64,000 bases of DNA from Pseudomonadota bacterium (lineage in GTDB: Bacteria; Pseudomonadota; Alphaproteobacteria; Sphingomonadales; Sphingomonadaceae). Below the pieces are notes generated by a model, which saw nothing but the letters and a program-made list of their open reading frames with translations, did not search any database and had not been told where the DNA came from. A program made the position numbers and the translations under genes. The stretch is taken from contig JBKPKZ010000090.1 of NCBI GenBank assembly GCA_046731355.1, forward strand, positions 6,806 to 70,805, in the 5' to 3' direction. This document shows, in pieces, positions 17,974 to 27,963 of this stretch. The first letter of the stretch is position 1. Each line of letters begins with the position of its first letter.

Positions 17974-19394
17974 CCCACAAGTCCGGTCGCGACCGCTAAG
18001 CCGAGGAACAATAGGAAGCCCATCGAATCCGTCATCATCGTGACGAAGATCGAAGAGCCGACCGCGGGATCGACTCCGAACCGTTCAAGCGTGAGCGGAA
18101 CCAGCGAACCGACCGTACCTGCAACGAGGATGTTGGCGCACATCGCCACAGCAATAACAGCGCCGAGCAACGGATTGTGGAACACCAGCGCCACTCCAAC
18201 GCCCAGGATCAATGCAACGGTGCCGCCATTGAGCAGGGCCACGCGCATTTCGCGCCCAACCGCGCGCCACCGGTTGGAGCCGGTCAGCTGATTGGTCGCA
18301 AGGGCGCGGACCGTGACCGCCAGTGTCTGCGTGCCGGCATTGCCGCCGACTCCCGCAACGATCGGCATCAGCGCGGCGAGGATGACCAGCTGCGCGATCG
18401 CGCCCTCGAACAGGCTGATGATCGTCGATGCGACAAGCGCCGTTCCGAGGTTTGTGATCAGCCAGCGGACACGGCTCTTGTAGCTTTCGATCACCGGCTC
18501 GTTGATGTCGCCTTCATCGCCTGCGCCGGAGAGGAGGAGCACGTCCTCGCCCGCTTCTTCCTGGATGATGTGCACGATGTCGTCGACGGTGATCATTCCG
18601 ACCAATCGGCCGTCGTCGTCCACGACTGCCGCCGAAACGAGCGCATATTTCTGGAAGCGGAGCGCGACGTCTTCCTGGTCCATGTCGACCGGGATCAGGG
18701 TTTGCTCCTTCGTCATGATGTCGCCGACAAGCGTCGTTCGAGGCTTCCGAAGGATTGTCGACAGCTTGCAGGTGCCAACCGGGTGGTGGTCGGGATTGAC
18801 GACGAAAACCTCCCAGAAATCGTCCGGAAGATCGCTTTCGGAGCGGAGGTAATCGATGACCTGGCCGACTTTCCAGTGCGCAGGAACGGCGCACAGGTCG
18901 CGCTGCATCAGGCGGCCGGCGGATTCTTCCGGGTAGCTCAGGGCCTCCACGACCGCTGCGCGATCGTCGGGCTCCATCTTCTCGAGGACGGCCTGCTGGT
19001 CTTCTTCGTCGAGATCCTCGATCAGGGCTACGGCGTCGTCCGTCTCCATCTGGCCCGCGAGGTCGGCGACCTGCTGCGGCTCCATCTCGTCGATCAAGTC
19101 CTCGCGGACGTAGTCGTTGAGCTCCGCGAGCACCTCCGGGCTGATGATCCCGGCGAGCGCCTTGACCAGCCCTTCGCGCTCGTCGCGGCGGGCAAGCTCG
19201 ATCAGGTCGGCGACGTCGGCGGGGTGAAGCGGCTTGACCAACTCGCGGGCGGTCTCGTCATCGCCGAGTTCGACGGCGTCCAGGACTTCGTCGACGAACT
19301 CAGGACGAAGCCGAGACTCCTCGTCCATCACCCGGTCATCGTGATAATCGAGATCCTCAGGGGCCGCGGTGGCGAAGTTCTCGCTCTCGCTCAT
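17970..19394 (-). CDS. mgtE: Magnesium transporter MgtE
   Basis: Acidic N-domain, CBS pair, GRLVGMITVDD, MPIVAGVGGNAGTQ, DPAVGS...TMMTDSMG. Confidence 0.96.
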   Translation of the reverse strand: MSESENFATAAPEDLDYHDDRVMDEESRLRPEFVDEVLDAVELGDDETARELVKPLHPADVADLIELARRDEREGLVKALAGIISPEVLAELNDYVREDLIDEMEPQQVADLAGQMETDDAVALIEDLDEEDQQAVLEKMEPDDRAAVVEALSYPEESAGRLMQRDLCAVPAHWKVGQVIDYLRSESDLPDDFWEVFVVNPDHHPVGTCKLSTILRKPRTTLVGDIMTKEQTLIPVDMDQEDVALRFQKYALVSAAVVDDDGRLVGMITVDDIVHIIQEEAGEDVLLLSGAGDEGDINEPVIESYKSRVRWLITNLGTALVASTIISLFEGAIAQLVILAALMPIVAGVGGNAGTQTLAVTVRALATNQLTGSNRWRAVGREMRVALLNGGTVALILGVGVALVFHNPLLGAVIAVAMCANILVAGTVGSLVPLTLERFGVDPAVGSSIFVTMMTDSMGFLLFLGLAVATGLVG

Positions 19395-19509
19395 GCCTTG
19401 AACCCCCAGCCTTGTCCCGTGGCGCCGTCCTATTGCCGCGCCCGCACTGGCGCAACCCGCTTGGGCCGCCTAAATCGCCGCCACTTCCTATTTTTGCTGG
19501 AGCTTTACG

Positions 19510-19974
19510 ATGGCCGACGACGAACGCCTTGTTTTCCACCTTTCGAGCGGCGGCGACGTCGTGATCAAGCTACGGCCCGACCTCGCGCCCGGCCACGTCG
19601 AGAGGATCAAGGAGCTGACCAAAAGCGGCTTTTACGACGGCGTTCCGTTCCACCGCGTTATTCCGGGCTTCATGGCCCAGGGCGGCGATCCGACCGGGCG
19701 CGGTACCGGCGGTTCCGATCTTCCGAACCTCAAGGCTGAATTCTCGGATGCTCCGCACACTCGCGGTGTTTGCTCGATGGCCCGAACCCCCGACCCGAAC
19801 AGCGCCAACAGCCAGTTCTTCATCTGCTTCGACGACGCTCGCTTCCTCGACAAGCAATATACTGTCTGGGGCGAAGTCGAGAGTGGCATGGAGCATGTCG
19901 ACGCGCTTCCCAAGGGCGAGCCGCCGTCGGAACCGGGCAAGATCGTGAAGGCCGAGATCAGGCCGGCGAACTGA
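19510..19974 (+). CDS. Cyclophilin-type peptidyl-prolyl isomerase
   Basis: FYDGVPFHRVIPGFMAQGGDP, SMAR, SANSQFFIC, YTVWG. Confidence 0.96.
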   Translation: MADDERLVFHLSSGGDVVIKLRPDLAPGHVERIKELTKSGFYDGVPFHRVIPGFMAQGGDPTGRGTGGSDLPNLKAEFSDAPHTRGVCSMARTPDPNSANSQFFICFDDARFLDKQYTVWGEVESGMEHVDALPKGEPPSEPGKIVKAEIRPAN

Positions 19975-19977
19975 AGC

Positions 19978-20733
19978 GTGAAAGCGGTCACGCTGATCAC
20001 CGGTGCCTCCTCGGGACTGGGCGTCGAGTTCGCGCGGCAGCTTTCGAAAAAGGGACAGAGGCTGGTCCTTGTCGCTCGGCGCAAGGACCGCCTCGACGCG
20101 CTCGCGGCTGAGCTTGGCAACGCTCGCGCGGTCGCCATCGACCTCTCCAGGCCCCACGCGGTCAGGACATTGGTGGATGACTTGCGCAATGCGGACGAGC
20201 AGGTCGAGATTCTGATCAACAATGCAGGCTTCGGCCTTCGCGGGCGTTTCGTCGAGCTCGACGCGTTGCGCGAACGCGAGATGATCGATCTCAATATCGG
20301 CGCGCTGACGGATCTGTGCCGGGCAATCGCGTCCCAGATGGTGGATCGGAAGTCGGGCGCGATCCTCAATGTCGCCTCGACGGCGGCCTTCCAACCCGGA
20401 CCCAACATGGCCGTCTACTTCGCGACCAAGGCCTACGTGCTCTCGTTCACCGAGGCGCTTCACGAAGAACTGAAGCCGCATGGCGTGAAGGTCAGCGCGC
20501 TCTGCCCAGGACCGACGCGGACCGAGTTCGGCGAGGTCGCGGGCATCAAGACGCTGGGCCAGTTCGACCGGCTGGCGATGGAGTCCGAGCCGGTCGTCCG
20601 GGCTGGTCTTGAGGGCCTCGAATCCAATGAAGCGGTCGTGATCCCGGGAGCGACGAACAAGATCGGAGCATGGTCGACCCGCCTTGCGCCACGCTCGGTG
20701 GTCCGGCGGATCGCCGGTTCTCTGAAATTCTGA
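19978..20733 (+). CDS. SDR family oxidoreductase (DltE/YqjQ-like)
   Basis: TGASSGLG, LINNAG, NVAS, YFATK (YxxxK), LCPGPTRT. Confidence 0.93.
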   Translation: MKAVTLITGASSGLGVEFARQLSKKGQRLVLVARRKDRLDALAAELGNARAVAIDLSRPHAVRTLVDDLRNADEQVEILINNAGFGLRGRFVELDALREREMIDLNIGALTDLCRAIASQMVDRKSGAILNVASTAAFQPGPNMAVYFATKAYVLSFTEALHEELKPHGVKVSALCPGPTRTEFGEVAGIKTLGQFDRLAMESEPVVRAGLEGLESNEAVVIPGATNKIGAWSTRLAPRSVVRRIAGSLKF

Positions 20734-20765
20734 AGGGGTTTTCTTCGGGGACATCACCACCACAT

Positions 20766-20790
20766 TGAACCCAATCCCGCCGCGACCGTT
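20766..20790 (+). promoter_or_regulatory. EcfG/SigT-like promoter candidate of the CDC48 gene
   Basis: TGAAC-N16-CGTT, 33 bp upstream of the GTG start. Confidence 0.5.
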
Positions 20791-20822
20791 ACGCTAGCGG
20801 CACGAAATGAGAGGAAGGTTGC

Positions 20823-23141
20823 GTGGCCGATACCGATACCCTTGAGCGGACCACCACGGTAAAGGTGCAGGTCGCCAACCTGCCACCGGCCGATGGCGGA
20901 CGAGGCTTCGCGCGCCTTTCTGTCAGCCTGATGAAATCGCTCGGACTCAACGAAGGCGACGTGATCGAGATCGTCGGCAAGCGCACGACGACGGCTCGGA
21001 TCCTGCGGCCCTATTCCGATGACGCCGGGCTCGACATCATTCGCCTCGACGGCCTGCAGCGTTCGAATGCCCGCGTCGGTTCGGGCGACTATGTCGAGGT
21101 CAAGAAGGCGCAGTCGAAGCCGGCGACACGTGTCGTCTTCGCGCCTGCGCAGGACAACATCCGCCTTCAGGGGTCGGCAACGGCATTGAAGCGCAGCTTC
21201 GCCGCGCGGCCCTTGGTCGAGGGCGATGTCGTCGCCACCACCGGCCACCAGCGGATCGATTCCAACCTTCCTGAAGAAGTCCGGCAGATGCTGAGCGCTC
21301 CTGCTTTCGCGCTTCAGGAAGTGCGTCTCCAGGTCGTCACCACGACGCCCAAGGGAATCGTCCACGTCGATTCCAACACTCAGATCGAGCTTCTCCCGGA
21401 GTTCGCGAAGGGTGACGGCGAGCGCCGAGCGGACGTGACATATGACGACCTCGGCGGAATGCGCGACACGATCGACGCCCTCCGCGAGATGGTCGAACTT
21501 CCGCTTCGCCACCCCGAGCTTTTTCAACGTCTCGGCGTCGATCCGCCCAAGGGAGTCCTCCTCCACGGCCCGCCCGGCACGGGAAAGACCCGGCTCGCCC
21601 GAGCGGTCGCGAACGAAAGCGACGCACGATTCTTCCACATCGCCGGCCCCGAGATCATGGGGTCGGCCTACGGCGAGAGCGAAAAGAAGCTACGCGAATT
21701 GTTCGAGCAGGCGTCCGAGCAGGCTCCGTCGATCATCTTCATCGACGAGATCGATTCGATCGCTCCAAAGCGGAGCCAGGTGACCGGCGAGGCGGAGAAG
21801 CGCCTCGTTGCCCAGCTTCTCAGCCTGATGGATGGCCTTGAGCCACGCCAGAACCTCGTCGTCATCGCCGCCACCAACCGACCGGAGGCGATCGACGAAG
21901 CGCTCCGTCGCCCCGGCCGCTTCGATCGCGAGATCGTCGTCGGCGTTCCCGACCAGAAGGGCCGTCGCGAGATCCTCGGCATTCACACGCGCGGCATGCC
22001 GCTCAGCCCGAGCGTCGACCTCGACGAGTTGGCGCGGCAGACCTACGGTTTCGTTGGCGCCGATCTAGCCGCGCTGACCCGCGAGGCGGCGCTCGAGGCC
22101 GTTCGCCGGATCATGCCCAAGCTCAACCTGGAAGAAGAGACCATCCCGACCGACGTGCTCGACGACCTGTCGGTCGAGCCGAGCGATTTCATCAATGCGT
22201 TGAAGCGGGTTCAGCCTTCCGCGATGCGCGAGGTGATGGTCGAGACTCCATCGGTCGGTTGGGATGACGTCGGCGGGCTTGATGCCGCGCGTGACCGGCT
22301 TCGCGAAGGCGTTGAGCTGCCGCTCAAGCACCCCGATGCATTCCGCCGCTTGGGCATTCGGCCTGCCCGCGGCTTCCTGCTTTACGGCCCCCCGGGAACC
22401 GGCAAGACACTGCTGGCCAAGGCGACCGCGCGGGAGAGCGAGGCTAACTTCATCGCCACCAAGTCCTCGGACCTGCTCAGCAAATGGTACGGCGAAAGCG
22501 AGCAGCAGATCGCACGGCTGTTCGCCCGTGCGCGGCAGGTGGCACCGACAGTCATCTTTATCGACGAGCTGGACAGCCTCGTCCCGGCGCGCGGTGGCGG
22601 ACTTGGTGAACCACAAGTGACGGAGCGCGTAGTCAACACGATCCTGGCCGAAATGGACGGGCTCGAAGAGCTCAACAATGTCGTTCTGATCGGCGCGACC
22701 AACCGCCCCAACCTGATCGATCCGGCGCTGCTTCGGCCGGGCCGTCTCGACGAGCTGATTTACGTCGGCACGCCGGATACGGCCGGCCGTCGGCGAATCC
22801 TCGCGATCCACACCGAGGATATGCCGCTGGCGCGCGATGTGGACCTGGAATCGCTCGCACAGCGAACGGAGCGGTTCACCGGCGCCGATCTCGAAGACCT
22901 CGTCCGTCGTGCCGGCCTCACTGCGCTTCGTCGCGGGCTCGATGCCAACGAAGTGACGAAGGCCGACTTCGAGGCGGCGCTCGCGGAGACGCGCGCGTCG
23001 GTCACGCCGGAAATGCTCGAGGAATATGACCGCATCCAGGAGACCCTGAAGAGCGAGGCCGTGCGTCCGACCGGAATCGGCTTCGTCCTTCCGGGCATGC
23101 TCCGCTCCCGTGGCGGAGAGGGCAAGGGTCCCTCGACCTAG
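20823..23141 (+). CDS. CDC48/VAT/p97-family double AAA+ ATPase
   Basis: 772 aa; N-domain (DxGRGFARL...[11 protein letters not shown]), two GPPGTGKT Walker A, IFIDEID/IFIDELD Walker [11 protein letters not shown] and [10 protein letters not shown] arginine fingers, KWYGESE D2 pore loop. Confidence 0.95.
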
Positions 23142-24436
23142 AGCGCCGGAAGCCTACTCCTCGACCAGATAGCGAGTGCAAGAAGCAGTCCGGCGGAGAC
23201 TGCGAACGGCAGGTTTGGGCTCACGAGATATAGCGCCATTCCCAGTGCCGGCGCAGCCACCCAGCTGATGCCGTTGGCAGCGGTGATCAGCCCCGCGACT
23301 CCGCCTTGCTCGCTCATCGGGACCGCCAGCGAGGCGCCACCGGTGAATCCTGGCCGAGTGAAGCCGAAGCCGAGCGATGCGAGACCGAACGACAAGGTGA
23401 TACCATAGAGATCGCGGGCGACGACTGCGCCCGCGAGCCCGATCGCAGCGACAAGGGAGCCCCACAAGATCAACGCTCGAGGCTTCAGTGCCAGCCTCGG
23501 GATCAGGCCCCACTGCGCAGCGAGCGTCGCCGACGCGCCGGCCATCATCACGATTGCGATCGAAGCCTCCGATCCGTGCGGCTCGAGATGCAGTCGGTCG
23601 ATCACGAAGAAGCCGATGCAGGTGAGCGTCGCCGCCTGGGCATGACCAGCCGCGACGCCCGCAAGAATCCACGTCCGCACTCGGGAATCCTTCCAGCTCA
23701 GCCTCTTGCTCCTAGGCGACGTCGCTGCGACGACGCTCGCTCCGGTCGGCTGCGACGCTCCGGAGGGGTAGCTCATCGCCGCGCCCCGACCGAGGCGCCG
23801 GCCATAACGGTCGTTTGGAAGCCAGAGCAGCACTGAAACGAACACCGCGATCGCGATCAGCGCGAATGCGAACATCGGTCCGGCCAGCCCGACGAACGGC
23901 AGTACGAACAACGGCGCCACTGCCGGGCCGATAATCGTTCCGAGGCCGAACGACGAGGACAGCGCCGAAAGGGCAGCGACCCGTCCGCTTCGACGGGTCT
24001 TGGCGGCGAGGTACGCCTGGGTCGCCGACGGAGTGGCGCTTCCGAATGCGCCATAGATCGCCCGGAACATGCCGAACAATGCAAACGTCACTCCGCCCCC
24101 GACCACCCCGACGAGACCAAGGTGCAGTACCGTTCCGCAAAGCAGGGTGGAGACGATAAATCCGGTCAGGCCCAGCAAAGTCAGCGCTTTCCGGCCATGG
24201 TGATCGCTCTTTTCGGCCCAGAACGGCGCGAGCGCCACCCACAGGACCGCGGACCAAGTGTACGCGACCGCGACCCAGAAATCGGAAATGCCGATCTCGC
24301 GGCCGATTGCGGGCATGACCGATTGAAGCGCGGTATTACCGGACGCGGCAACCAGCATGGCCGCGTAGAGCAAAAGGAAATGGGTGCGCGTCAGCGCGGT
24401 CGTTCCGATGCGTGGCCTGGCAAGTTCTTGACGCAC
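23138..24436 (-). CDS. MFS transporter (DHA1/TetA-like)
   Basis: About 12 hydrophobic segments; SDHHGRK motif A after TM2; GLGTIIGPAVA motif C-like. Confidence 0.88.
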   Translation of the reverse strand: MRQELARPRIGTTALTRTHFLLLYAAMLVAASGNTALQSVMPAIGREIGISDFWVAVAYTWSAVLWVALAPFWAEKSDHHGRKALTLLGLTGFIVSTLLCGTVLHLGLVGVVGGGVTFALFGMFRAIYGAFGSATPSATQAYLAAKTRRSGRVAALSALSSSFGLGTIIGPAVAPLFVLPFVGLAGPMFAFALIAIAVFVSVLLWLPNDRYGRRLGRGAAMSYPSGASQPTGASVVAATSPRSKRLSWKDSRVRTWILAGVAAGHAQAATLTCIGFFVIDRLHLEPHGSEASIAIVMMAGASATLAAQWGLIPRLALKPRALILWGSLVAAIGLAGAVVARDLYGITLSFGLASLGFGFTRPGFTGGASLAVPMSEQGGVAGLITAANGISWVAAPALGMALYLVSPNLPFAVSAGLLLALAIWSRSRLPAL

Positions 24437-24534
24437 CTCGAGCTTCTAGCGTCCGCCGGGCGCGGGCTTCCAGCCGAGAAATCAGCTGTACGGCTTGGCC
24501 ACGAGCCGCCTTTGCCGCTAGTCCAACACAGCCG

Positions 24535-25443
24535 ATGGATATCTACCTCCCGATCGCCGGCCAGTCGGTCAACGCCTTGCTGATCATCGCGCTCGGCGGA
24601 ATCGTCGGCATCCTCTCCGGCATGTTCGGCGTCGGCGGCGGCTTTCTAACGACACCGCTTCTGATCTTTTACGGAATCCCGCCCTCCGTGGCCGTTGCAT
24701 CCGCAACCACGCAGATCACTGGAGCGAGCGTGACCGGGGCGATGGCGCACATGCGACGAGGCGGCGCCGACGTGCAGATGGCCGCGATCATGATCATTGG
24801 CGGCCTCATCGGATCGCTGGTTGGCGCCGCAATCTTCCGCGCCCTTCAGGCCAGCGGACAGATCGATGTGGTGATCGGCGGTCTCTACGTACTGCTGCTC
24901 GGCTACATCGGGTTCCTGATGCTCAAGGATGCACTGACGGCCCTTGGCTATGTGAAGACGAAAGCGCCGGAGAAGAGGCCCCGGCACAACCGCTGGGTCG
25001 CGGCGCTTCCTTTAAGATGGCGATTCTACAAGTCGGGTCTCTACATCTCTCCGCTGGCGCCTTTCGCGCTCGGCTTCGGCGCGGGCGTCCTGACGATGCT
25101 GCTCGGCATCGGCGGCGGCTTCATCCTCGTTCCGGCGATGATCTACATCCTCGGAATGCCGGCTCGAATTGTCATCGGAACGTCGTTGGTGATCATCCTC
25201 GTCATCGCGGCGGGCACGACGATGGTGCACGCGCTGACGACCCGCGCGGTCGACATCGTGCTTGCCGGCTTGCTGCTGCTCGGCGGTGTCATCGGCGCGC
25301 AATACGGCGCGGTCCTCGCTACCCGAATGAAGCCGGACTACCTCCGCCTCGCCCTGGCGGTCGTCATCCTTCTTGTAGCGGGCCGGATGCTCCTCGGCCT
25401 CACCTGGCGGCCGGACGACATCTTCACCGTGGAGTATCTGTGA
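24535..25443 (+). CDS. TauE/SafE (TSUP) family membrane protein
   Basis: MDIYLPIA start; duplicated G(M)FGVGGGF and LGIGGGF..VP...AIGTS halves. Confidence 0.92.
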   Translation: MDIYLPIAGQSVNALLIIALGGIVGILSGMFGVGGGFLTTPLLIFYGIPPSVAVASATTQITGASVTGAMAHMRRGGADVQMAAIMIIGGLIGSLVGAAIFRALQASGQIDVVIGGLYVLLLGYIGFLMLKDALTALGYVKTKAPEKRPRHNRWVAALPLRWRFYKSGLYISPLAPFALGFGAGVLTMLLGIGGGFILVPAMIYILGMPARIVIGTSLVIILVIAAGTTMVHALTTRAVDIVLAGLLLLGGVIGAQYGAVLATRMKPDYLRLALAVVILLVAGRMLLGLTWRPDDIFTVEYL

Positions 25444-26265: not shown

Positions 26266-27963
26266 TTGGGGCGGCATAATATGGACGAACAACCGAACCT
26301 GCAGAATTTCGTCAATGAAATCAGCAGCTTCAGTGATGATGGAAGCGCGCCCAAGGCGACTTCACCGGCTGCGGCGAACCTTCAGGCCATTGGCGAAGTG
26401 CTCGAAATCGCGGGCTCCGGCTCGCGAATCCGCATGGATAATGCGGCGCTTGCCGCGAACGCCAATCACTCCGATCCGTCCGTCGCCATGTCCGGCCAGG
26501 TCGGTAGCCAGGTAAAGATGGCGGTCGGCAACAGCTGGCTCATCGCCAACGTGCGGACGATGAAGGGTGAGAATAACGAGGTCATCGCGGCGATCGACTT
26601 CCTCGGCGAAGGCGCGCGCGATTCGCGTGGCGGAATGAGCAATTTCCGCCGTGGTGTGACTCGCTATCCGATCCCCGGCCACAAGGTGCTTCCGGTAACG
26701 ACGCAGGACCTTCGCTCGGTGTTCGCGGCCGACGACAGCCCCCATATCGAGATTGGAACCGTCTACCCGACGGATGACATTCGCGGTGCGCTCTACGTCG
26801 ACCCGATGCTGTCGAAACACTTCGCGGTGCTGGGATCGACCGGTACCGGTAAGTCGACCTCGGTTTCGCTCATCCTTCACCGAATCTCGGAGCTGAGCCC
26901 CGAGGGTCACATCGTGATGATCGACCCCCACGGCGAATATTCGGCAGCGTTCAAGGATTGCGGCGAGCTGTTCAACGTCGACAACCTCCAGCTTCCGTAC
27001 TGGCTGATGAACTTTGAAGAGCATTGCGAAGTCATATTGACGACGCATGGCTCCGAGCGTCAGCGCGATGCCGACATCCTGGCCAAATGCCTTCTCGCCG
27101 CCCGTACCAAGGGCAAGAACATGGAGCAGTTCGGCAAGGTCACGGTCGATTCACCTATCCCTTACCTGCTCGCCGATTTGAGCGGCATCATCGTCAACGA
27201 AATGGGCAAGCTCGAACGGGCCGGGGACACGCTTCCCTATCAGCGCCTGAAGACGAAGCTCGAAGAGCTGCGGGCCGATCCGCGCTACACCTTCATGTTC
27301 TCGGGCATGCTGGTTTCGGACACGATGGGCGGCTTCCTTGCCAAGCTGTTCCGACTGCCGAGCCACGGCCGTCCAATCTCGATCGTCGACGTGTCGGGGG
27401 TTCCATCCGAAATCACCTCGGTCGTGGTTTCGGTGCTCGCGCGAATGGTCTTCGACTATGCGATCTGGTCGCGCACCGAGCCGCAGCGTCCGATCCTTCT
27501 GGTCTGCGAAGAGGCCCACCGCTATGTCCCGAAGGACGAGAACGGCGGCGCCCAGGCCGTCCGCAAGATCCTCGAACGTATCGCCAAGGAAGGCCGTAAG
27601 TACGGCGTGTCGCTGGGCCTGATCACGCAGCGTCCGTCCGACTTGGCGGAAGGCGTCCTGTCACAGTGCGGTACCATCATCTCGATGCGTTTGAACAACG
27701 ACCGGGACCAGGCCTGCGTTCGGGCGGCGATGCCGGAAGGTGCGCGCGGTTTCCTCGACGCCATCCCGGCGCTTCGCAACCGAGAATGCATCGCCTGCGG
27801 CGAGGGTGTCGCGATCCCGATCCGAGTCCGGTTCGACGATCTCGAGCCGGAAAAGCGCCCGGCCTCGGCCGACCCGAGCTTCGCAGCCCTGTGGCGCGAA
27901 ACGGGCGGCGAGGACGGAATCATCCAGCGCACCGTCAAGCGCTGGCGCGGTCACGGCCGCTAA
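26266..27963 (+). CDS. HerA/DUF87-type FtsK-HerA superfamily ATPase
   Basis: N-terminal HAS-barrel-like region, VLGSTGTGKS Walker A, LVCEEAHRY Walker B, EGRKYG, ITQRPS. The start may be ATG 26281. Confidence 0.88.
   Translation: MGRHNMDEQPNLQNFVNEISSFSDDGSAPKATSPAAANLQAIGEVLEIAGSGSRIRMDNAALAANANHSDPSVAMSGQVGSQVKMAVGNSWLIANVRTMKGENNEVIAAIDFLGEGARDSRGGMSNFRRGVTRYPIPGHKVLPVTTQDLRSVFAADDSPHIEIGTVYPTDDIRGALYVDPMLSKHFAVLGSTGTGKSTSVSLILHRISELSPEGHIVMIDPHGEYSAAFKDCGELFNVDNLQLPYWLMNFEEHCEVILTTHGSERQRDADILAKCLLAARTKGKNMEQFGKVTVDSPIPYLLADLSGIIVNEMGKLERAGDTLPYQRLKTKLEELRADPRYTFMFSGMLVSDTMGGFLAKLFRLPSHGRPISIVDVSGVPSEITSVVVSVLARMVFDYAIWSRTEPQRPILLVCEEAHRYVPKDENGGAQAVRKILERIAKEGRKYGVSLGLITQRPSDLAEGVLSQCGTIISMRLNNDRDQACVRAAMPEGARGFLDAIPALRNRECIACGEGVAIPIRVRFDDLEPEKRPASADPSFAALWRETGGEDGIIQRTVKRWRGHGR

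Follow-up and report, generated by a model that had tools for sequence, protein, structure and literature searches.

What does a Cdc48 ATPase of archaeal type do in a bacterium in which no 20S proteasome is found? Cdc48, p97 and VAT are known as partners of the proteasome and of the ubiquitin system, and their role in bacteria that have neither is a question to which the locus described here gives a concrete handle. The locus lies in a 64,000-nucleotide stretch of contig JBKPKZ010000090.1 (assembly GCA_046731355.1, positions 6,806 to 70,805; hereafter the window, in whose own numbering all coordinates are given) from a soil sphingomonad of the family Sphingomonadaceae. A sequence-only reading of its cdc48 gene had described an archaeal or VAT-type unfoldase that lacks the C-terminal hydrophobic-tyrosine-X (HbYX) motif and has no proteasome context. 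We find that the tail is not merely devoid of HbYX: a conserved Ile-Gly-Phe (IGF) tripeptide in it points to ClpP as a candidate partner. The explanation we propose, tentatively and as something short of probable, is that the gene encodes a stress-promoter-driven Cdc48/VAT unfoldase of archaeal descent, near-core in its family, that docks on ClpP.

An internal IGF motif where HbYX is missing

The Cdc48 of the window ends in ...GEGKGPST. It has no HbYX, as had been claimed, because no aromatic residue stands at position -2 or -3 of the C terminus. The IGF tripeptide lies 18 residues from the end. In all 40 Sphingomonadaceae proteins first examined it belongs to a longer element, P-[ILMV]-G-F-[VI]-x-P-G-M-L, placed about five residues past the last helix. 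Across 43 alphaproteobacterial proteins, G753 and F754 are invariant (43/43) and the flanking residues vary; residue 752 is isoleucine in 36, leucine in three, methionine in two and valine in two. The motif is internal and not C-terminal, because a charged extension of variable length comes after it (Table 1).

Archaeal relatives show a different picture at this end of the protein. Of 65 that were compared, 45 have an HbYX-like end, marked by an aromatic residue at -2 or -3, and 20 do not. An xGF tripeptide occurs in five of the 45 aromatic-ended proteins, all of them haloarchaeal, from one clade and ending in ...RIGFQ. Among 12 homologues from bacteria outside Pseudomonadota, two have an internal xGF, two an aromatic end and eight neither. 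The motif is present in a Gemmatimonas homologue (...RRIGFAAALAQE) and in one from Bipolaricaulota (...RQVGFTPAEEK...), and several 50%-cluster representatives also carry xGF. A distant clade from Chloroflexota/Anaerolineae has [KR]PRx[LIM]GF followed by five to nine residues in seven of eight complete genes; one further locus is incomplete, and a Myxococcales relative of this clade is without the motif.

The proteolytic setting of the genome was surveyed with PF00227, whose single whole-genome match is HslV (NF003964, 280 bits), with hslU nearby. A 20S core particle was not found in this search of a genome that is 94.35% complete, so that its location on a missing contig is possible; to this extent the claim of a host without a 20S proteasome stands. 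The organism does encode ClpX-ClpP-Lon, ClpA, ClpB, HslU and FtsH, together with RpoH. Cdc48 is therefore additional to a complete bacterial AAA+ set.

It is with two members of this set that the tail can be compared directly. The organism's own ClpX has the docking loop KSMGFGA and its own ClpA the docking loop ESIGFGA, and the Cdc48 tail has the same [IM]-G-F. The [LIVM]-G-[FL] element of ClpP-activating unfoldases is present in it as I752-G753-F754, within a disordered tail past the last D2 helix. By comparison, [ILMV]GF falls within the last 30 residues of 1.6% of the genome's open reading frames (ORFs) of at least 100 codons. According to a structural study of ClpXP, the IGF loop of ClpX packs the side chains of Ile268, Phe270 and Val274 into clefts between ClpP subunits; Arg192 of ClpP forms bonds with the backbone of this loop and a bridge to Glu51 of the adjoining subunit, and acyldepsipeptides occupy the same pockets (Fei et al., 2020; PMC7112951).

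We predicted a complex of Cdc48 residues 722-772 (43-row alignment) and three ClpP chains of the same organism (residues 1-205, 30-row alignment). The interface score ipSAE was 0.70, 0.68 and 0.69, against 0.00, 0.30 and 0.00 for controls; the mark used for this score is reached by 116 of 157 solved complexes and by two of 215 mismatched pairs. The three runs had at least 54% of contacts in common, and the partner pLDDT (predicted local distance difference test) was at least 55. Confident contacts of Cdc48 in the model are residues 751-755, 757 and 759-760. They are made with L56, F57, E59, S60 and Y90 of one ClpP copy and, on the adjacent copy, with R30, L31, E34, I36, D66, F68, Y70, A96, V98, I100, G117, M118, I120, L122, D194, E195, F197, R200 and P201. 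F754 and I752 are placed in the cleft between the two copies, bounded by L56, F57, E59 and Y90 on one and by F68, Y70, V98, I100, I120, L122, F197 and R200 on the other. ClpP residues 10-199 align to residues 2-191 of PDB chain 1tyf. With this offset of 8, R200 and E59 are the counterparts of Arg192 and Glu51, the ClpP residues in contact with the IGF loop of ClpX (PMC7112951). The modelled tail is thus compatible with the canonical ClpP pocket, and a model of this kind does not establish binding.

As a side observation on the peptidase, the ClpP of family genomes without cdc48 tends to score higher against TIGR00493 than that of genomes with it (40 genomes). Shared ancestry probably explains this difference.

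Family identity and archaeal descent

The assignment of the protein to the Cdc48/VAT family is near certain. It matches TIGR01243 ("CDC48 family AAA ATPase", NCBIfam) with 926.8 bits against a cut-off of 802.65, over model positions 2-730 of 733. Pfam recognizes CDC48_N (PF02359, 85.8 bits), CDC48_2 (PF02933, 42.2 bits), two AAA cores and two AAA_lid_3 domains. Other AAA models fit less well, and their matches are confined to the AAA cores: the FtsH model TIGR01241 stays below its cut-off (510.7 bits against 600), as does the model of the Pup-proteasome ATPase (395.2 against 504.75), and two PAN subfamily models exceed their cut-offs of 500 with 578 and 554 bits, far under the CDC48 score. Peptidase_M41 was absent among the matches listed, which cover 25 of the 40 Pfam families found. 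Among solved structures, Thermoplasma VAT (PDB 5g4f) matches best (residues 13-741, 745.9 bits), and p97 comes next with about 640 bits. Wherever a match has been named by NCBI or UniRef, the name is "CDC48 family AAA ATPase"; the gene itself is an annotated member of a known family.

Residue-level alignment to VAT, together with the domain models, confirmed the N-D1-D2 architecture with two intact ATPase modules. Walker A reads GPPGTGKT in D1 and D2 alike, Walker B reads IIFIDEID in D1 and VIFIDELD in D2, and the arginine-finger segments are RRPGRFD and LRPGRLD. The Walker and arginine-finger residues of both rings are invariant in the 43-sequence alignment. The pore loops are also as first described. 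The D1 loop is MGSAYGESE where VAT has MSKYYGQSE, so that GSAYG stands in place of KYYG, with G284 invariant in the 43 proteins and M279, G280, S281 and Y283 the same in 90% of them or more; the D2 loop is SKWYGESE where VAT has SKWVGESE, and its KWYG is invariant in 43/43. Where VAT has a gap, at about residues 141-165, the N domain carries an insertion about 17-25 residues long. In an AlphaFold2 model built on the 43 relatives (mean pLDDT 76.3) the last D2 helix comprises residues 729-747, and two long stretches have pLDDT below 50, namely the insertion at 141-165 and the tail at 749-772.

Within Sphingomonadaceae, 105 of 151 genomes have a match that exceeds the TIGR01243 cut-off, one copy in each; a single TAG in one genome is the sole internal stop seen in these genes. 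In the other families of the order (94 genomes) matches are sporadic, for example 1/27, 0/27 and 0/12. A search of 401 genomes of Alphaproteobacteria found just two matches outside Sphingomonadaceae, where about 398 were sampled, with 914.6 and 794 bits, the latter below the cut-off. The earlier remark that homologues occur in alphaproteobacteria is therefore correct as to their presence and too broad as to their spread: among the genomes sampled, almost all belong to Sphingomonadaceae.

Two midpoint-rooted trees, of 55 and 63 rows, were computed by maximum likelihood (IQ-TREE quick search, LG+G4) from rows gathered by similarity to the query, a set that holds no eukaryotic or p97, Cpa or FtsH sequences. 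The Sphingomonadaceae proteins and one other alphaproteobacterium form one clade (Shimodaira-Hasegawa-like approximate likelihood ratio test [SH-aLRT] 100) nested among archaeal Cdc48. In the second tree the Gemmatimonas homologue and three metagenome proteins join this clade. Its sister is a Methanoperedens protein with an HbYX-type end, ...EMYA. With the sub-threshold FtsH score, this position among archaeal Cdc48 speaks for the archaeal, VAT-type identity first claimed and not for an FtsH grouping. The nesting agrees with the published account, in which bacterial homologues outside Actinobacteria are infrequent, lie within the archaeal cluster and are proposed to stem from horizontal transfer (Ziemski et al., 2018; PMC6017811). 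The archaeal affinity of sporadic bacterial homologues is thus already in print; the near-core status in one family appears to be new. The closest named relatives are Sphingomonas daechungensis (94% identity) and Sphingomicrobium assemblies (about 85%).

Two groups of double-ring ATPases of other make-up were seen as well. Two-ring AAA forms of 618-646 residues occur in two other families of the order (genomes G553, G570, G576 and G596); they match only TIGR01243 positions of about 174-677, and so are without the Cdc48 N domain, and have no xGF tail. In the Cdc48-like ATPase of the Chloroflexota/Anaerolineae clade, no CDC48_N domain was detected in the one protein tested. In this clade the genes directly downstream of the ATPase gene encode a GrpE-like protein of about 215-275 residues and a divergent Hsp70-like protein of about 690-710 residues, a candidate AAA-Hsp70 chaperone operon.

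Promoters of the stress type

The stress-sigma-like promoter that the sequence-only reading had suspected takes the form of TGAAC-N16-CGTT, one mismatch from GGAAC-N16/17-CGTT and located in the last 100 nt or so before the start codon (Table 1). The orthologue in the one genome of the same genus, G096, has TGAAC-N17-CGTT at the same place, and the rest of its intergenic DNA differs. Published consensus sequences for EcfG promoters are GGAAC-N16-CGTT in Sphingopyxis (PMC7083833) and GGAAC-N17-20-GTT in Sphingomonas melonis (PMC6599016). The pattern NGAAC-N15-18-CGTT is found in four of 43 orthologue upstream regions, compared with 0.6-1.3% of background windows. NepR is encoded in the genome, and the upstream region of nepR has TTGAAC-N16-TTGTAC; judged from these sites, the EcfG promoters of this organism may use TGAAC in place of GGAAC. 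No sigma-70-like site was found in 20500-23400.

Most other genera have a different arrangement, in which the upstream gene ends in a T run that is followed by [CTA]T[CT]G-N16-18-C[CT][CT]A[TG]NT. This sigma-32-like pattern matches 26 of 43 orthologue upstream regions, against 0.8-1.8% of random windows, shuffles and other upstream regions. It resembles the promoters of the organism's own dnaK (CTTG-N17-CCTATAT) and lon, as well as the Sinorhizobium meliloti RpoH promoters CTTGAA-N15-16-CCTATAT and CTTGCC-N15-16-CCTATCT (PMC4843759). Supplementary data from S. melonis Fr1 give log2 changes for the orthologue Sphme2DRAFT_0793 of -0.39 in delta-ecfG at low stress, -0.80 in delta-ecfG under a stress mix and -0.99 in delta-phyR; the "EcfG motif" string listed for this gene also holds the sigma-32-like CCTATCT (PMC6599016). 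No CDC48 entry was found in the regulon supplements for S. granuli TFA.

Taken together, these motifs suggest that cdc48 belongs to a stress regulon, under a sigma factor that varies from genus to genus. The EcfG-like site of the window and G096, set against the sigma-32-like site of most of the family, gives the appearance that promoters for two stress sigma factors were exchanged within one family. RNA offers a weak hint that the gene is expressed: soil metatranscriptome contigs cover 20813-21479 with 2-4% differences, and a contig from an RNA run covers 22970-23182 with one difference. These contigs are mute on start, strand and level, and DNA carry-over is possible.

A possible Cdc48-ClpP protease and its alternatives

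In the mechanism that we propose, a functional, hexameric Cdc48/VAT-type unfoldase of archaeal descent would have become a near-core, single-copy gene of Sphingomonadaceae, transcribed alone from a stress promoter that would be of the EcfG type in this genus and of the sigma-32 type in most of the family. Damaged or selected proteins would probably be threaded through the D1-D2 channel and gripped mainly by the KWYG loop of D2, which is fully aromatic. A flexible tail on the D2 exit face, its HbYX end gone and an invariant internal [ILMV]-G-F in its stead, would then dock the ring on the ClpP heptamer, and Cdc48 would act as a third ClpP-activating unfoldase. The family membership, the intact motifs, the distribution, the conserved tail and the motif shared with the organism's own ClpX and ClpA are observed; stress induction, unfoldase activity and most of all the docking are inferred. 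This docking step is plausible to us, with a confidence somewhat below even.

A number of observations weigh against it or against the proposal as a whole. Eleven other bacterial Cdc48 homologues lack the motif (from Flavobacteriaceae, Chlorobiaceae, two Synergistota, Peptococcaceae, Syntrophaceae, a cyanobacterium, Dadabacteria, two Chloroflexota and one Sphingomonadales genome of another family). In 70 xGF-type cdc48 loci the flanks (1.5-6 kb) contain no clpP gene, and the genome already has ClpX, ClpA, ClpB, HslU, Lon and FtsH. A docking motif of just three residues is short, and so is the linker of about five residues that joins it to the last helix; the IGF loop of ClpX, by contrast, is long, and its length has a bearing on ClpP binding (PMC7112951). 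The complex model may have passed through recall of solved ClpXP structures, and it was one unrelated control peptide that reached the ipSAE of 0.30. As to regulation, the sigma-32 pattern was composed after viewing the data, and orthologous promoters are not independent samples. The changes of Sphme2DRAFT_0793 are significant but under the study's own threshold (PMC6599016).

Several of these points suit a second explanation, which we consider possible but doubtful. Cdc48 might be a stand-alone stress unfoldase or disaggregase without a peptidase, with a tail that binds something other than ClpP, be it the DnaK/Hsp70 substrate-binding domain, some adaptor or, in a regulatory role, the ring. 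p97 and VAT act without a peptidase in many settings. The tail has a hydrophobic core between basic residues (RPRQLGFRL; IGFVSPGMLKPR), the kind of peptide that Hsp70 binds, and heat-shock-type promoters fit a chaperone role equally well. The lack of clpP linkage in the 70 loci also speaks for this explanation. Moreover, the xGF-bearing Chloroflexota clade has its ATPase gene in a tight same-strand operon with GrpE-like (6/9 loci) and Hsp70-like (6/9 loci) genes, with Pfam scores at two loci of 161.9 and 214.4 bits for HSP70 and of 27.1 and 25.0 bits for GrpE (cut-off 25.8); this arrangement points to an Hsp70 partnership rather than to ClpP and thus counts against our proposal. On the other hand, the invariance of the glycine and phenylalanine in 43/43 proteins, and again in the Chloroflexota clade, suits a shaped pocket and not a permissive Hsp70 groove. 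The motif is identical to that of the organism's own ClpX and ClpA docking loops, and the tail emerges at the exit face of D2, the place of the peptidase-docking motif in archaeal relatives. The genome also has a ClpB already (1405.6 bits), and the ClpP complex model passed its controls.

A third possibility is that IGF is a partnerless leftover of an ancestral archaeal HbYX-type tail, the N domain and pore alone doing the work. The five haloarchaeal proteins ending in RIGFQ match the published HbYX pattern, [LVIMGAPFYW][FY]x> (PMC3493965), so that the tripeptide may be inherited from a 20S-docking tail and may now serve another purpose or none, a further point against our proposal. Canonical HbYX docking requires the extreme C terminus (PMC3493965), and the extension after the motif would block it. 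We nevertheless hold this explanation to be improbable. Were it without function, the tripeptide, which lies in a disordered and otherwise variable tail, would not have been kept unchanged in 43 proteins that are only 64-78% identical to the window protein. Furthermore, the nearest archaeal sister ends in EMYA and not IGFx, the haloarchaeal RIGFQ clade is distant in the tree, and the motif recurs in a separate bacterial clade.

Docking on HslV, the sole proteasome-fold peptidase of the genome, as an alternative to HslU is more improbable still. HslV is encoded and is homologous to 20S beta subunits, but it is not known to have an alpha ring with HbYX pockets, the organism's own HslU ends in ...LSRYVL, unlike the Cdc48 tail, and no linkage was seen. 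An assembly contaminant or a recent, non-functional archaeal import, which a 242-contig metagenome assembly might suggest, is effectively refuted by a G+C content that resembles the surroundings, a gene order shared with G096, occurrence in 105/151 family genomes and invariant catalytic motifs.

The Cdc48-ClpP reading can also be put in general terms, and as such we offer it with due reserve. After transfer from archaea, the HbYX tail would have been converted in some bacteria to an internal IGF for the ClpP cleft, giving a Cdc48-ClpP protease; the relatives in Gemmatimonas and Bipolaricaulota may share this state, and Anaerolineae may have gained the motif independently. In literature searches scanned at the level of their listings, we found no publication on a Cdc48-ClpP link or on the function of bacterial Cdc48 outside Actinobacteria.

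Genomic setting

The host assembly is a 2.65-Mb metagenome assembly. Around cdc48 the gene order is GTP cyclohydrolase II, MgtE (-), cyclophilin, a short-chain dehydrogenase/reductase (SDR), cdc48 and a major facilitator superfamily (MFS) transporter (-). The cyclophilin that the sequence-only reading had placed just before cdc48 does lie upstream but is not adjacent, as the SDR gene stands between them (Table 1). The order MgtE-cyclophilin-SDR-cdc48-MFS is identical in G096. No operon partner was found for cdc48, which is monocistronic and whose neighbours are kept only within some genera. The MFS transporter gene (23138-24436, -) is convergent with cdc48, and its 3' end shares 4 nt with the cdc48 stop. 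We found no intrinsic terminator in 20500-23400, including between cdc48 and the MFS gene, and no match to Rfam families in 19000-25000. Further downstream, an ORF of 565 residues at 26266-27963 (+) has the P-loop GSTGTGKS and follows two membrane-protein ORFs. A motif search of the assembly for GroEL gave no match.

Table 1. Positions of cdc48, its sequence features and its upstream neighbours in the window.
Feature	Position	Strand	Basis or remark
Cyclophilin gene	19510-19974		Upstream of the SDR gene
SDR gene	19978-20733		Immediate upstream neighbour of cdc48
EcfG-type promoter-like motif, TGAAC-N16-CGTT	20766..20790	+	TGAAC 20766-20770, CGTT 20787-20790; ends 32 nt before the start codon
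Ribosome-binding site, GAGAGGAAGG	20810..20819	+	3 nt upstream of the GTG start at 20823
cdc48 coding sequence	20823..23141	+	772 aa, GTG start; CDC48/VAT-family double-ring AAA+ ATPase
N domain (CDC48_N residues 15-97, CDC48_2 residues 119-195)	20865..21407	+	Pfam
D1 AAA module with lid, about residues 205-470	21435..22232	+	Pfam, VAT alignment
D1 pore loop-1 GSAYG, residues 280-284	21660..21674	+	VAT alignment
D2 AAA module with lid, about residues 480-747	22260..23063	+	Pfam, VAT alignment
D2 pore loop-1 KWYG, residues 554-557	22482..22493	+	VAT alignment
Tail motif, residues 751-760; candidate ClpP-docking element	23073..23102	+	Alignment
Variable charged extension after the motif, 12 residues (about 5-25 in relatives)	23103..23138	+	Alignment

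Significance

What appears to be new is the family-wide retention of cdc48, the invariant ClpX-like tail in place of HbYX, the recurrence of the motif in Chloroflexota and the promoters of heat-shock or general-stress type. The gene is near-core in a culturable, genetically tractable family that includes Sphingomonas, Sphingopyxis and Novosphingobium. Heat or general stress is the predicted condition of induction, and mutation of a three-residue motif should tell the hypotheses apart. If Cdc48 does dock on ClpP, the ClpP system would gain an activator from a different AAA+ clade, the third after ClpX and ClpA, and a horizontally acquired archaeal machine would have been rewired to a bacterial protease. 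Peptidase-docking elements would then be exchangeable between AAA+ clades through small changes of the tail. Should ClpP docking fail, the invariant tail would still mark a partner site.

Comparison with known systems

The nearest well-described system is VAT of Thermoplasma acidophilum (PDB 5g4f, 5vc7), with which the window protein shares N-D1-D2, the Walker and arginine-finger motifs and the D2 pore-loop motif. It differs from VAT in its D1 loop (SAYG here, KYYG in VAT) and in the N-domain insertion of about 17-25 residues. Compared with archaeal Cdc48/VAT in general, it resides in a bacterial host behind a bacterial stress-type promoter; no 20S was found in the genome, and an internal IGF with an extension is present where HbYX is missing. 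Eukaryotic p97/Cdc48 (about 640 bits) has the same domain order and likewise a partly non-aromatic D1 pore loop. Its acidic C-terminal tail, ...LYG, is unlike the end of the protein described here, which is moreover encoded by a bacterial gene with a stress-type promoter.

Among bacterial AAA+ proteins, the ClpB-DnaK bi-chaperone also involves a double-ring, stress-induced ATPase, a likeness that for Cdc48 extends to a predicted induction. Cdc48 is without the M-domain of ClpB and belongs to another AAA clade, and the genome has a canonical ClpB besides. Cpa, the actinobacterial Cdc48-like protein, is also a bacterial double-ring relative; it forms a clade of its own and binds the actinobacterial 20S, and its deletion alters the proteome under starvation (PMC6017811). 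In the sphingomonad, by contrast, no 20S was found, and the gene is frequent within one family. With E. coli ClpXP (PDB 6PPE) and ClpA-ClpP, finally, the shared feature is [ILM]-G-F on the peptidase-facing side of a hexameric unfoldase, which in our model of Cdc48 is placed in the same inter-subunit ClpP cleft, near the equivalents of Arg192 and Glu51. ClpX and ClpA carry the motif in an internal loop of the large domain and belong to the HCLR clade, whereas Cdc48 is a classic AAA protein that bears it in the C-terminal tail.

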